Below, piece after piece: positions 31,348 through 37,717 of a stretch of DNA of 64,000 nucleotides. A program made the position numbers and the translations under genes. Origin of the DNA: Dictyostelium discoideum (taxonomy: Eukaryota); assembly GCA_000004695.1 (NCBI GenBank), contig CM000153.2, positions 3,168,001 through 3,232,000 on the forward strand, written 5' to 3'. Below the pieces are notes generated by a model. The model was given only the letters and a program-made list of their open reading frames with translations, did not search any database and had not been told where the DNA came from. The first letter of the stretch is position 1. The number at the start of each line of letters is the position of its first letter.

Positions 31348-32252
31348 ATGAATATAGACTCGACTTCATTAAATAATAATAATAATAATAATAGTAACAA
31401 TAATTGTAGTAATAGTAAAAACAGTAATAGTTTAGATATTGAAATATACCCAAACATAAATAGACTTCATCGATATAATAGAAATGACTCTATTTATAAT
31501 AAGATAAATAGTGAAAGAAATAACACTCTGTTAAAACAAAAATGCATTTATTTTCAGGACGAAAAGAATAAAACAAATCCAACAACAACAACAACAACAA
31601 CAACTGCTACTACTACTACTACTACTACAACAGCAACTAGAATAGCGGCAGATAACAATAATGAAGAACTTATAAATACCAATATAAAATCAAAGATTAA
31701 ACACATATGTACATGTCCAATCGAATTCGATAATTTAGTAGATTATGAAAATCATTATCATAGTATACATAAGAATTTTTGCACAATTTGTAAAAAGAAA
31801 TCATATCCTACCTATAAACTATTAGAATGTCATATTTTAGAAACTCATGACAAATTATTTGAAACTTTATGTTTAAAAAAAAAAATGGTAATTATTTTGA
31901 TTATTGTTATTGTTATTATTATTACTAATCTATTTTTTTATTTTTTTTTTTTTTTTTCATTTAAAATAAAAACAAAACTCAGTTTGAGTGTTTTGTATGT
32001 GACAGAGTATTTTGGTCTGATTATTCAAGGAAATTACATTTAGTTGATTATCATAAATACCCAAAAGATTTTTATTTTCATTCCAAACAAAGATCAAAAG
32101 AATTGGATAAAATTAGGTTAAAAGGTTTGGAAGTTGCAAATAATAACAATAATAATAACAAACCAAATAATGATGAAAAAACAAATTCCGATAATATGAT
32201 GGAACTTGATCAAATCATTATGGATATTGAATCATGTAATACCAAAGATTAA
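31348..32252 (+). CDS. C2H2-type zinc-finger protein. Two exons: 31348..31887 and 31983..32252. Intron GTAATT..CTCAG.
   Basis: Two C2H2-like units span the intron: 'CTCPIEFDNLVDYENHYHSIH', 'FCTICKKKSYPTYKLLECHILETH', and 'FECFVCDRVFWSDYSRKLHLVDYHKY' after the intron. The N-terminus is N/T-rich. Confidence 0.6.
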
Positions 32253-32779
32253 AAAAAAAAAAAAAAAAAAATGAATATTAATTCCACCTTTATTAATTAA
32301 ATAAAAAGAAAAAAAAAATTGGGCTCTTTTGTTAGAATCTCCAAAATTAATTTTCGAAATTATTTATATCTGCCCTATATTCATAGGTCTTAGATATTAT
32401 ATTATTATTATTTTTTCAAACTTAAATTTTCCAGGTTTTAAAAATAAATTTTATTTTATTTTTTTTAAAAAAACCTCAACATATTCAACTGTTTTTTAAT
32501 ATATTAAAATCATTTTTAATATACTAACAAAAAATAAAAATAAACAATTTATTAATATCCAAAAAAAATAATATTAATATTAATAATTCATTTTTAAAAA
32601 TAAAATTTCAAATTAATAATTTTCTCATATTTTTTATTTTTTAAAAAAAGAGTGGATTAAAAATTTAAAATGGATAATTAAATTCAGTAATATATATATT
32701 TTTTTGAATAGAAAATTTCAAATACTATCTCATATTATTTAATTCCATAAAATATATATTTTTTTTTTTTTTAAAATTT

Positions 32780-32812
<33 letters not shown>

Positions 32813-32902
32813 GTTCGTCGCGACATTTAAAATTTTTTTATTTTTATTTTTTTTTTTTTTGCATTTGTGTGATCTTCTACAATAGATTATCATTATTATA
32901 AT

Positions 32903-35594
32903 ATGTTTTCATTAAATCCACAATCAAATGGAAATAGTAATAATTTATTTGGGAATGTAACCCTTGGAAATTTTAGTAATAATAGTAATAATTTATTTGG
33001 TGGTAGTTCAACAACATCAACAAATACCAACAATAGTAATAATTTATTTGGTGGTAGTTCAACAACCAATAGTAATAATTTATTCGGTAGTGGTGGTAGT
33101 TCAACAACCAATAACAACAACTTCAATAGCAACTTCAACAATAACAATATAAAGAATGAAAATAAAATTAAAAATGGAAAGAAATTTTATAATTTTAGAT
33201 GGTCACCAACCGGAGAAATCCTATTATATAATACACTTAATAATTTTGATAATCATAATTTTGATCAAAAAAATGGTGGTAGTGATACCATACGTTATGA
33301 AATGAATACAACTTTATCAACAATTAAAAAAGTATGTATTAACTGTTATTATTATTATTATTATAATAATAATAATAATATTACAATAATACAATATATT
33401 ATAACATACTCACTCACCCATCCACCCACCCACCACTACAAAAACAATGATATTATTATTATTATCATTATTAAATAGTTTTACAATGATTTATATACAA
33501 ATTTTGAAACTATGCAAAGAATTGCAGGTCTTTCAAATCAAGTTATACCAGATGATAGAGTTAGAGAGATTTCACATCATAGTAGAACATATCTATCTGT
33601 GATTTTAGCAGCAATCAATCAAATGAGTAAATCTCAAAAAACAGGTTCATACATTGACGATGAAGATTCTTGTATGAATTGTGATCCTTTAGATAATGAT
33701 TTAATGTATGTATATGTTTATACAGAGAGAGATAGAGAGAGACAAATTGATTGATTGATTGATTTATCTATTTATTTATTATACTTACTTTCCATCATCA
33801 CTTATTTATTATTTGAAATAGTAAAATACAAACACCAAGAGTATTAGAATATTTTAAACAATATCCAAATAAAACATTAATTTTCTTTTGTGGTAGTATC
33901 GATTCAATTTATCCATATCTTTGTTCAAAATTATCAATGGAGACAAAATCAAAATGTATATTAATAGCAAGAGAATCAAATGTTCCAAATTCAAAACGTT
34001 TAGATTTAATTAGTATGTATATAAATTTATTTATATTATTATTATTTTTATTATTATTATTATTATTATTAACATTTATTTTTTATTTTTTTAAAAGGAA
34101 CAATTTCAAATCAAGGTGAACTTAAAATTTTAAATAAAGATGAATATTCAAATAGATATCAAATTGCAAATGAAAATTATGGTGAATTAGATGATGTTTT
34201 AACATTAGAGATTGATGATACTTATTTAGCATATGAAAGAGAGATAGATAATTTAATTTGTATGTCAACAATGTGGAGAGTTGCAAATTTATTTTATTTT
34301 AGTGTTTCAAGTTCATCAAATTCAGTATCACCAACTCAATTATTGGATTGTATAGAATTGGAGAGAAAAGAACTATTGAATAGCATCGAACAACAAGGTA
34401 CACAAGATCCAATGGATTCGGAATATTACAATCAAATTGCACGTCTATTGGTTTGTGGTTGTATAGATCAAGTCATTCAACAATTGAATATACTAAGTCG
34501 TGCACCAAGAAGTGCATCACAAATTAAATCAACCTCTAGAAAATCACCAATCAATCTATTGATTGATATTCTCTCTTCAATACCATTGAAAAAGAAATCA
34601 ATCAATGGTGGTGGTGGTGCACCACTCTATCCAAATGAACATTTAATTCAATGGAATAAATGGCATCAAGAAACTCAGAAAATACTCTCTCAATATATTG
34701 AAAGTGGTAGTTCAAGTACCAATCAAGTCGATGAGAACCTTTTACCAATAGTAAAGATCCTTTTAGGTGATCAACAAACTATAATGTCAACTTGTAATAG
34801 TTTTCTTCAATTGGTAGTTTCAAATATTCTCTTTGTTGAGTATACAACCTCAACCACTCAATTACGTCAACTTTTCACTCAATGTTATCAAACTATTCAA
34901 GCTCCAACAACTGTTGATAAAATTTTCTTATCATTTGCAACAAAGGATTTAGATATTGTTTGTATTAAAATAATAACTAATAATAACTAATTATAATTAA
35001 TAATAACAATATAAATTATATTTATATTAATTTTTTTTTTATTTTTATTTTTATTTTTTTAAAAATTTAAAGACATTAAAGAAAATTTTTAAACATTCAC
35101 CAGCATGGTTAGCAGTACATTTATCAGATTTATTATATCATCATCCATATGTTATGAGAAAATTACCAAATTCAGAATCACAATTAACAAATATTAGAGA
35201 ATATTTATTATCAGATTTTGGTCAATCATTAGCATCAGATTCATCGTTATTATCAATTGGTTGTAATTATTTAAAGTATGTAAAGAATGGTGGTTTGGAA
35301 ATGATTGATCAATTCATATCAAGACAACCAATTCATTTTGAAAAGAATGCAATTAAAATGTTGGATAAATGGGCTACCTCTGTTGAAACAAAGAATTCAA
35401 TCTATAAAATGTTATCACTTCAAGATTTCAAAAGAAAAAGATATGCTGCAAGTTTAAATTGGTTAATGTTGGCAAATGATAATTCACATATCACTTTATT
35501 ATCAAATTATTTATTAGAGAATCAATTAAATTCAGAATTTTTAAATGATCTACAATCATTATTAGAAAAAAATGATGAAATTGATTGTAATATA

Positions 35595-35628
<34 letters not shown>

Positions 35629-36038
35629 GTAATAATAGAATAAGTGGAAATAATAATAATAATATGATAATTGATGAAAATAAATTTGAAATTACAAATA
35701 ATAGTGAATTAATATTTTTAATTAGATATAGAGAATTAATTAGTTTATGGAAAGAAAGATCATTTAAAGAGTATTCAAGTTCACTTTGTTTGATGTTCAA
35801 AGATAGAGTTATCCCAAAACGTTTTTGGTTACGTTTACTCATTGATTGTGTTCCATTATTAGAAAGTTTAAAAAATCTTTATTTCACTTATCAAGATACA
35901 CTTCTTTTGCAATCTTGTTTAGAAGAAATCATTCAATCCCATTTATTCGATCAATACTCTTTTAATATTTCAAATCAAGATATTCAAATTTTACGTAGTG
36001 CTTTAGCTAGAAATTTAGCAAAGTCAATCATATCCTAA
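32903..36038 (+). CDS. nup85: Nucleoporin Nup85 (Nup75) homolog with an N-terminal FG-repeat extension. Five exons: 32903..33331, 33479..33705, 33822..34012, 34098..34957 and 35073..36038.
   Basis: The C-terminus '...RFWLRLLIDCVPLLESLKNLYFTYQDTLLLQSCLEEI...ILRSALARNLAKSII' matches human NUP85 '...[37 protein letters not shown]...MLRLALARNLARAII'. 'WLAVHLSDLLYHH' matches 'WFVAHLTDLLDHC', and 'LIQWNKWHQETQKIL' matches 'LELKWQHWHEECERYL'. Exon 1 also encodes four 'SNNLFG(G/S)' FG repeats before the 'YNFRWSPTGEILL' block, which matches 'YFDWGPGEMLV'. The introns use GTATGT donors. Confidence 0.8.
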
Positions 36039-36170
36039 ATAAAATAAAAAAATAAAATAAAAAAAAAAATAAAAAATAAAAAAATAAAAAAAAATAAAAA
36101 AAAATAAATAGTAATAAAAATAATAATAATAATAACTATATATTTAGAATATTTTTTTATAACAATTTTA

Positions 36171-36931
36171 TTAATTTGAGTCTGTTGTTGTAGTTGTATC
36201 ATCATCTTGATCCATTTTTGCTACTTTTCTAAATTCTTTTGTTTTTGTTTTTGGACATTGCATTGTATTCCAACTTATTGGAATCATAGTACTACCTGCA
36301 ACACTTTGTGCAAATACAACACCCAATTCATTTTTAGCTGTTGATAAATAATATGATCTTGAATCACCTAATGAAATCTATTATTTTCAAATTTTATTAA
36401 AAGTGTTAATAATAATCAAATAATTATGTTTTTTTTTTTTTTTTTTGATATAAAATAAAATTACAAACATACAATTTGAGCTAAAACTATATCACCAGGT
36501 CTAAATGATTTATAAATTTCAACTTTATCAATTTCAGTTGCACGAACATCTTGAATTCTAATGATACCATTGAATGTTTCTTTTAATGCTTTTGTTCCAA
36601 CACAAAGGATAGCAACACTTGCTAACTTTGGATTAATACGGAGCACTTGAACTGTAACTATACTTCCAATTTCTGGTACAACACTTGGTTCTTTTTCTTT
36701 TAAAACTACTATATAATCTTTATTATTTTCTATTTCATTGCTATTATTACTATTATTTACATTATTTTCATTTGTTGTATCTATATTTCTTTTTATTACA
36801 TGTTTAAACCCTAAAACTGACGAGTAAATATATCCTTTATGTACATAAGTTCCTTCTGATGATATAAAATCTGATTCTTTACATAATCTTTGACCCGGTG
36901 TTATAATATCATTGCTTGATGATTGAGACAT
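36171..36931 (-). CDS. csl4: Exosome complex component Csl4 (EXOSC1). Two exons: 36931..36473 and 36377..36171. Intron GTATGT..ATAG.
   Basis: '...IRIQDVRATEIDKVEIYKSFRPGDIVLAQI|ISLGDSRSYYLSTAKNELGVVFAQSVAGSTMIPISWNTMQCPKTKTKEFRKVAK' matches human EXOSC1 'IRKEDVRATEKDKVEIYKSFRPGDIVLAKVISLGDAQSNYLLTTAENELGVVVAHSESGIQMVPISWCEMQCPKTHTKEFRKVAR'. Confidence 0.9.
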
Positions 36932-37402
36932 TATCGAGAATTCTTGGTGTTATGTTAAAGTTTCGTTTAAATTTGAAACTTTTTTTTATAATTAAAAAAA
37001 AAAAAAAACTAAAAAATAAAAAAAATAAAAAAAAAATAAAAAACGAATGAAAATTTAAAAAATAAAAAAGTGAAAATAATGAAAAATATTTTAAGTCCAA
37101 TCAGACCTGAAAAAAAATGAAAATAAATAAATATAAAAAAAAAAAAAATTTTAGGTAATATATATAATATTTATATATTCCTTTTAAAATCTTAAAAGAA
37201 TATATATAAGAATATAAAATATATAAAAAAATAATAAATAAATAAATAAATAAAATTTTTAAAGCAATTAATATTATTTATTTTATACATTAAAAGATCA
37301 ATTGATCACCACCAATTTTTATTTTATTTAAATTATTTCCACACCAATTTTTTTTATATTTATATTTTAATTTATTTTTCCAATTTGATTTATTATTTAC
37401 AG

Positions 37403-37717
37403 TTATTGTTTTACAGTTTCTCTAACATTAAGATTATCACTAAATAGTTTTAAAAACAATGGTTTATTTGATTTTGGAAGTGTTGATAAAATATGTAGTA
37501 AATCATTAGATTTTTCAATTAGAGATTTTATATTCTTTTGATTAAATGAACCTTGATCTAAAAATACTTTATTTAATATAAACGCTTCTTTTGTATTTAA
37601 TCTTATCTTATATTGTACCTGTTTTGGAAATTGATATGATAATCTAATAAATTTTCTATATATATTCATTGAACTCCTTATTGTTGGTATATTTATTATT
37701 TGTGCTACTCTAGTCAT
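37403..37717 (-). CDS. LYR-motif (Complex1_LYR family) small protein, 104 aa
   Basis: The N-terminus 'SMNIYRKFIRLSYQFPKQVQYKIRLNTKEAF' fits the L-Y-R...R...F pattern of LYRM proteins. Single exon. Confidence 0.4.
   Translation of the reverse strand: MTRVAQIINIPTIRSSMNIYRKFIRLSYQFPKQVQYKIRLNTKEAFILNKVFLDQGSFNQKNIKSLIEKSNDLLHILSTLPKSNKPLFLKLFSDNLNVRETVKQ

Follow-up and report, generated by a model that had tools for sequence, protein, structure and literature searches.

A short and evolutionarily young FG tail, probably a minor add-on, at the N-terminus of Nup85 in Dictyostelium discoideum

Phenylalanine-glycine (FG) motifs are usually credited to a closed list of nucleoporins, those of the channel, the cytoplasmic side and the basket, while the Y-complex of the nuclear pore is treated as pure scaffold. 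A 64-kb stretch of Dictyostelium discoideum DNA (referred to as the window; overall GC content 22%) raises the question of what FG motifs might be doing on a Y-complex subunit, since the first exon of its nup85 gene encodes four of them ahead of the conserved Nup85 body. We estimate at roughly even odds (a probability of about 0.5) that this segment is a real, translated and disordered GLFG-like tail of recent origin, which would weakly join the FG phase and the transport receptors as a low-valency supplement.

The gene is indeed nup85, as an earlier note on the same DNA had proposed. Its product matched the Pfam profile PF07575 with E=7.4e-66 (223 bits against a cut-off of 22.1; residues 326-854 against profile positions 75-557) and was 100% identical over 890 aa to the deposited D. 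discoideum Nup85, while the Xenopus and human Nup85 chains matched it at E=1e-39 and 2e-34, respectively. More specifically, a five-exon model yielded an 890-aa protein with 100% full-length identity to the NCBI entry 'nucleoporin 85 [D. discoideum AX4]' and to chain P0 of PDB entry 9hcj ('D. discoideum nuclear pore complex'), and the same 890 aa are encoded again in a second D. discoideum assembly. Exon 1 spans 32903-33331, exactly as first placed, and is followed by a GTATGT donor at 33332. Its translation (MFSLNPQSNGNSNNLFGNVTLGNFSNNSNNLFGGSSTTSTNTNNSNNLFGGSSTTNSNNLFGSGGSSTT...KKFYNFRWSPTGEILLYNTL...STIKK) is a single open reading frame (ORF) without stop, so that the four FG motifs share one ORF and one exon with the conserved block FYNFRWSPTGEILL (residues 95-108), with no in-frame Met between them. 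The parts of the gene are as follows:

32860-32902, + strand: leader before the start codon, non-coding and near-invariant (~97% identity in 4 genomes)
32903-32905, + strand: start codon of nup85, the first ATG after the stop and the only Met before residue 133, with an MFS start common to 5 dictyostelids
33185-33331, + strand: conserved N-terminal block, residues 95-143, with F95, F98, W100, P102, G104 and L108 invariant in six dictyostelids
33332-33478, + strand: intron 1 (GTATGT...AATAG), its donor position and phase kept in D. citrinum, D. dimigraforme and D. purpureum
33479-33705, 33822-34012, 34098-34957 and 35073-36038 (including the stop), + strand: remaining exons, giving a spliced product identical to 9hcj P0

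The FG dipeptides are located at residues 16-17, 32-33, 49-50 and 61-62 (nt 32948-33088), each within an NNLFG motif, and these motifs span residues 13-62 at spacings of 16, 17 and 12. A six-frame translation of the window contained NNLFG four times, all at 32939-33088, and the array in nup85 exon 1 is the sole cluster of at least three FG in the window. In composition-preserving shuffles of the 94-residue tail, at least four FG arose in 0.6% of the trials and at least four LFG in 0 of 200,000. Together with the 42-nt unit revealed by Tandem Repeats Finder, these shuffles indicate that the repetition stems from duplication and not from chance. The extra D. discoideum LFG copy corresponds to this 42-nt duplication (residues ~43-56), and both D. 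citrinum and D. dimigraforme show a 14-codon gap at that place. The features of the tail are:

32903-32983, + strand: conserved first 27 residues (MFSLNPQSNGNSNNLFGNVTLGNFS), including LFG number 1, with 3 substitutions over the 27 residues among three species
32939-33088, + strand: four-NNLFG array, with FG at 32948-53, 32996-33001, 33047-52 and 33083-88 and uncharged N/S/T/G spacers
33031-33113, + strand: 42-nt tandem duplication (Tandem Repeats Finder: period 42, 2.1 copies, 87% match)
33089-33184, + strand: linker of 32 residues, N-rich and then K-rich (SGGSSTTNNNNFNSNFNNNNIKNENKIKNGKK), with 6 charged residues in 83-94

The tail thus holds multiple FG motifs separated by short hydrophilic spacers, and residues 1-82 contain no D, E, K or R and 35% Asn. 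The low charge count, the AlphaFold confidence (predicted local distance difference test, pLDDT) and the residues left unmodelled in 9hcj are all consistent with intrinsic disorder. AlphaFold gave residues 1-100 a pLDDT of 20-23 without secondary structure, in a whole-protein model that was poor overall (built from 6 sequences, mean pLDDT 52.8) and was taken as weak support for disorder only. The 9hcj chain models 755 of the 890 residues, and the deficit of 135 equals the tail plus a poly-Asn loop in the C-terminal solenoid.

The earlier note had pointed to a downstream start at an internal Met, or to an intron between the FG region and the Nup85 core, as events by which the tail could be lost from the protein. 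Inspection of the ORF revealed no internal Met between the FG array and the conserved block, and hence no such downstream start, and no GTA[AT]GT donor was present inside exon 1. The next Met after M1 is residue 133, which lies beyond conserved residues 95-108; because no other Met precedes it, any protein containing that block must start at M1. The MFS start is common to D. discoideum, D. citrinum (two assemblies), D. dimigraforme, D. purpureum and P. violaceum. When dictyostelids were compared, exon 1 measured 429, 375, 375, 375 and 294 nt; each length is divisible by 3, and the donor keeps its position. The DNA alignment further revealed that the reading frame was maintained across several indels in four genomes, and the other two frames of the segment contained 2-29 stops in every species compared. 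The GC content of the FG part is exon-like: 27%, where the DNA upstream has 13% and introns 3 and 4 have 5%. Ahead of the start codon, the leader is marked as non-coding by an in-frame TGA (32870-32872) and by a 4-nt indel that D. citrinum shows close to the ATG. The same indel and TGA led us to reject an upstream exon spliced into the AATAG at 32881-32885. From this comparative evidence we infer that the tail is translated.

The amoebozoan alignment that had been suggested as a check was carried out, and it confined the FG array among dictyostelids to D. discoideum, D. citrinum and D. dimigraforme. The N-termini compare as follows:

D. discoideum: four LFG
D. dimigraforme: three LFG
D. citrinum: two LFG and one LFS
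D. purpureum: no FG; a 58-residue N/T/S-rich tail in which several Phe positions are kept (NIFPNITVSPF...NNTFE)
P. violaceum, Tieghemostelium lacteum and Cavenderia fasciculata: essentially without tail
Acytostelium subglobosum: starts MFG

Judged by these sequences, four motifs in three close species amount to a very small and young array, not to a canonical FG domain. The alignments indicate a recent origin in the lineage of D. discoideum, D. citrinum and D. dimigraforme, with AAT-rich simple sequence slipping in frame or duplicating in tandem. The first 27 residues are the only near-invariant part of the tail, and D. purpureum partly retains their pattern (N-I-F-P-N-I-T-V-x-x-F).

The block that follows the tail was examined by profile comparison. 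By analogy with published Nup85-Seh1 structures (cited in PMC5450191), from which its Seh1-binding role derives, residues 95-143 presumably form the beta-strand segment that completes the Seh1 propeller. The resemblance to vertebrate Nup85 claimed for this block is real in that it is collinear with the significant match of the body, but it is weak alone: HMMER aligned D. discoideum residues 95-194 to Xenopus Nup85 22-118 (FYNFRWSPTGEILLYNTL versus HIGFSWGP-GDLLLYETL) with E=0.8-33 for that stretch by itself. A dictyostelid N-terminal profile detected other Nup85 N-termini at E 1e-4 to 6e-6 in a set of 157 sequences. The AlphaFold monomer model was uninformative in the block region (pLDDT <35). 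A weak match of the block (window 33185-33320, residues 93-139) to bacterial YceI beta-barrel proteins was also seen (E=0.004 and 0.046); this probably reflects a chance beta-hairpin likeness, though it fits the beta-strand character.

To place the tail among eukaryotes, a profile search of 1.84 billion representative proteins was used, which yielded 370 Nup85 relatives, the best 150 of which were examined. This exhaustive search superseded a full-length search that had returned 6 matches, its candidate list having been filled by low-complexity words. The statement that Nup85 normally lacks FG repeats held up in this survey, as 121 of the 154 Nup85-family sequences compared carry no more than one FG within any stretch of 100 residues. 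The usual leader before the conserved block in the Nup85 sequences surveyed consists of 10-40 residues without FG, and N-terminal FG arrays occurred only in the D. discoideum clade and in one Percolomonas sequence. Smaller numbers were found in Balamuthia mandrillaris (MFASFGGF...GGGVFGGV, 2 FG) and in the chytrid Entophlyctis helioformis (MSSTFGFG, 2 FG), and an MF[GS]-like start recurs in Acytostelium and Balamuthia. The Percolomonas sp. WS sequence (P0113, MMETSP0759, L007 233-4273) carries ~700 residues with 25 FG, followed by a Nup85 body (PF07575, E=2e-50), as one uninterrupted ORF in a 4460-nt transcript contig. The GC content at third codon positions of this ORF is 0.33-0.39 in the FG part versus 0.44-0.55 in the Nup85 part, and the transcript may be a chimeric assembly. 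Because Balamuthia, Entophlyctis and Acytostelium carry few FG motifs there and Percolomonas many, the Nup85 N-terminus appears to tolerate them, and on these sequences N-terminal FG on Nup85 is fairly described as rare but recurrent.

Further searches added little to this distribution. Searching the PDB sequences with just the FG tail returned Nup85 itself and a chance low-complexity match to SWI3, with no FG nucleoporin chains, and homologous-protein searches with the FG tail alone, or with the Percolomonas Nup85 body, yielded no matches. No mention of FG motifs on Nup85 was found in the D. discoideum nuclear pore complex (NPC) preprint or in the titles and abstracts of the other literature matches, and no publication on the Percolomonas FG-Nup85 was found in the literature searched.

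If the tail is translated as proposed, its place in the pore can be predicted. According to that preprint, the D. discoideum pore contains 8 cytoplasmic and 24 nuclear Y-complexes, and predicted Nup160-Nup85-Seh1-Nup43 models were fitted into the tomographic map for the Y-complexes of both the cytoplasmic and the nuclear ring (bioRxiv 10.1101/2024.01.17.575985). Entry 9hcj holds four Nup85 chains per asymmetric unit, placed in the Y-complex as fitted predicted models. The tail adjoins the beta-strand block expected to dock Nup85 onto Seh1, and would be tethered on the short arm of every Y-complex. With 32 Y-complexes per pore there would therefore be 32 tails, bringing ~128 extra FG motifs with a 3:1 nuclear bias. 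Polymer dimensions suggest that a disordered chain of 92 residues would have a mean reach of only a few nanometres, and would extend to ~33 nm when fully stretched. The yeast and vertebrate literature places the Seh1-Nup85 arm beside the sites where the cytoplasmic Nup214/Nup82 complex and the basket are anchored. The tails would then enter the FG phase nearby and make weak contacts with transport receptors. Adding a few percent to the FG content of the pore, they would supplement the canonical FG nucleoporins at low valency, in a role that is peripheral and dispensable and not that of a barrier-forming domain.

A number of observations weigh against even this modest role. D. purpureum, P. violaceum, Tieghemostelium and Cavenderia lack the array, and one LFG has turned into LFS in D. 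citrinum. Tail codons with non-synonymous differences exceed those with synonymous ones (17-19 versus 9-10 in 75 aligned codons), and Phe was not significantly better conserved than the other tail residues (Fisher p=0.6-1.0). The pattern typical of FG domains, namely FG motifs kept across orthologues while the spacers drift, was not found: outside D. discoideum only D. citrinum and D. dimigraforme retain the motifs, and D. purpureum and four deeper dictyostelids lack them. With four motifs in ~60 residues, the array is smaller than recognised FG domains, and GLFG-type domains (Nup220, the D. discoideum Nup98 homologue, and Nup100 and Nup116 of yeast) hold 43-56 motifs. The Nup85 spacers contain 35% Asn, which is the signature of Dictyostelium simple-sequence expansion, versus 2.5% in the T/G/S/Q/P-rich Nup220, and the Pfam Nucleoporin_FG profile gave no match at E<=0.01 in the Nup85 protein. 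Because copy number varies, non-synonymous changes are in excess, Phe is not favoured and only the first 27 residues are steady, we regard the array as young and still changing. As the Phe-conservation test was not significant, we make no claim of selection on the tail, and from the alignments at hand such selection could not be demonstrated. Many of these points also suit a tail that is translated but neutral, being an Asn-rich simple-sequence tract whose repeat unit happens to hold Leu-Phe-Gly, unselected and with no measurable effect on transport. We treat this as a serious, if tentative, alternative: the tract is rich in Asn and its DNA in AAT, copy number varies among sister species with the 42-nt duplication specific to D. 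discoideum, the array is missing from D. purpureum and the deeper dictyostelids, and both the non-synonymous excess and the lack of extra Phe conservation would follow. It accounts less readily for the near-invariance of the first 27 residues (LFG number 1 included) in three species, for the hydrophobic pattern that persists in D. purpureum and for the three LF(G) positions that are kept while the spacers change. In addition, physical considerations lead one to expect contact between a charge-free LFG tail at the pore and the FG phase, with or without selection.

The steadiness of the first 27 residues (MFSxNPQxNGNSxNLFGNVTLGNFS) might in turn mark them as a short linear motif that binds one particular partner, perhaps a further outer-ring, cytoplasmic-filament or basket component, with the downstream LFG copies as by-products of duplication. 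These residues are indeed far better conserved than the remaining tail, the pattern N-[LI]-F-x-N-[VI]-T-[LV]-x-x-F survives in D. purpureum without the Gly, and the MF[GS] start recurs in Acytostelium and Balamuthia. However, P. violaceum, Tieghemostelium and Cavenderia do not have the motif, and no partner can be named; we find this reading quite improbable. The scattered occurrences of FG motifs on Nup85 N-termini (in Balamuthia, in a chytrid, in the D. discoideum clade and, on a massive scale, in Percolomonas) could alternatively mean that the Nup85 N-terminus, ahead of the Seh1-docking strands, is a recurrent FG attachment point used independently in several lineages. It would build an outer-ring FG layer that in D. 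discoideum takes the form of a nuclear-biased fringe that measurably affects transport or the organisation of the basket and FG phase; we consider this reading unlikely. Least probable of all, and very improbable in our estimate, is that the FG segment is a gene-model artefact, the tail being lost through a start further downstream, an intron missed in annotation or processing of the N-terminus. It is true that all database entries, including the 9hcj SEQRES, stem from one predicted gene model and that the tail is unmodelled in 9hcj. Nevertheless, no in-frame ATG lies between array and block, exon 1 lacks a GTA[AT]GT donor, the frame survives indels in four genomes with the other frames closed, the GC content of the FG part is exon-like, and the ATG is the exact point at which non-coding sequence gives way to coding sequence. 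In our judgement the tail is most likely a GLFG-like appendage, low in valency and marginal in importance.

Were such an appendage functional, it would mean that scaffold subunits can gain FG valency quickly through simple-sequence expansion, and ~128 nuclear-biased motifs per pore would be added to a D. discoideum pore that is itself unusual in having three nuclear Y-rings. As D. discoideum is haploid, genetically tractable and endowed with an in-situ NPC model, it would offer a small and clean test of what a few tethered FG motifs do. Should the tail prove neutral, it would serve as a warning that chance expansion in low-complexity proteomes yields FG-like motifs, and that sequence by itself is insufficient to count barrier components.

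Some further features of the locus and the family were recorded. D. discoideum, D. citrinum and D. dimigraforme share the gene order around nup85 (window ~31348-37717), which D. purpureum preserves in part. The region upstream of the start codon and the neighbouring genes read, in order:

upstream of nup85, - strand: PROPPIN WD40 gene
next, + strand: small C2H2-like gene, followed by nup85 (+ strand)
32812-32831, + strand: conserved GC-containing box GGTTCGTCGCGACATTTAAA, in long and elsewhere variable poly-T ~75-90 nt upstream of the ATG, kept in D. citrinum and shifted in D. dimigraforme
36171-36931, - strand: EXOSC1/CSL4, after nup85
37403-37717, - strand: 104-aa ORF
beyond it, - strand: DNA polymerase delta catalytic subunit

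The box at 32812-32831 is a candidate promoter element. A bacterial-type promoter and terminator scan of 32200-33400 was disregarded, being meaningless in eukaryotic DNA of 13% GC. Introns 1 and 2 have a GC content of 20-23%, unusually GC-rich for Dictyostelium (introns 3 and 4: 5%), and simple repeats of the CCCA type (CACCCATCCACCCACCCACC) and of GAGA / GATT occur in the introns at 33400-33432 and 33716-33765. The poly-Asn loop in the C-terminal solenoid (window ~35590-35680, residues 740-768, or ~740-770) varies in length by species and is absent in P. violaceum; the AlphaFold model gives it low confidence. Among the relatives retrieved, a Nup85 homologue from a JGI metagenome (P0050, 1328 aa) carries a ~550-residue N-terminal extension with ~15 Trp-containing repeats (TSSSWDAPAVEQPSTT), which are not FG.

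How, then, does the Nup85 tail compare with known FG systems? Nup96/Nup145C and Nup85 are structurally related ACE1 solenoids that complete a propeller with an N-terminal blade, Sec13 in the first case and Seh1 in the second, and Nup98-Nup96 is made as a single precursor in other organisms. TbNup158 of Trypanosoma brucei is an uncleaved Nup98-Nup96 orthologue, in which an FG region and an outer-ring solenoid form one polypeptide (PMC4758718). The earlier view that FG motifs on a scaffold nucleoporin are unusual therefore stands for Nup85 itself, but not for outer-ring scaffold subunits in general, for which TbNup158 and the Nup98-96 precursor provide precedent. Like TbNup158, D. discoideum Nup85 has its FG motifs N-terminal to the propeller-docking strands, followed by an ACE1 alpha-solenoid of the Y-complex. 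Unlike TbNup158, it is not a Nup96 orthologue and has 4 FG instead of 58 (PMC4283134), and it would owe them to a recent simple-sequence expansion, whereas TbNup158 reflects an ancient fusion and has an autoproteolytic domain (non-cleaving). The sole family match of the D. discoideum protein was Nup85, with no sign of a Nup98 autoproteolytic domain or of Nup96/Nup145C orthology, and between FG array and conserved block there is only the 32-residue N/K-rich linker and no further domain. The likeness to a Nup98-Nup96-type fusion is best taken as analogy, not membership.

A second comparison concerns the cohesive GLFG domains. Ten Nup98-type FG domains hold 36-58 motifs in 479-737 residues, and D. 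discoideum Nup220 has 56 FG in 719 residues (PMC4283134). The Nup220 FG domain as transcribed from the supplement of that paper (693 residues, 55 FG) contains 31 xLFG at a median spacing of 12 and is charge-free. The Nup85 tail resembles Nup220 and yeast Nup100 and Nup116 in its xLFG core, charge-free spacers and ~12-17-residue spacing, and its N-rich spacers resemble those of yeast Nup100 (SLFGNSNNNNNS...). It has no GLEBS or autoproteolytic domain, and would be anchored on the short arm of the Y-complex, not by Nup98-type linkers. In sum, the tail has the composition by which FG repeats are defined, and falls short of a canonical FG domain in size and conservation.

Percolomonas sp. WS offers a further parallel, with FG motifs N-terminal to a genuine Nup85 body in one ORF. 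It differs in having 25 FG, mostly GFSFG or GFTFG, with charged spacers over ~700 residues, and since it belongs to an unrelated lineage (Heterolobosea) its FG-Nup85 would be independent in origin. The N-terminal FG tail on D. discoideum Nup85 is probably an evolutionarily young and minor add-on, rare and yet not unique among Nup85 proteins. Finally, like the Asn-rich tracts of Dictyostelium, the tail is AAT-rich, expands in frame and varies in length by species, as does the poly-N loop of the same protein; unlike ordinary tracts of this kind, it carries a regularly spaced hydrophobic LFG core, and does so on a nuclear-pore protein.

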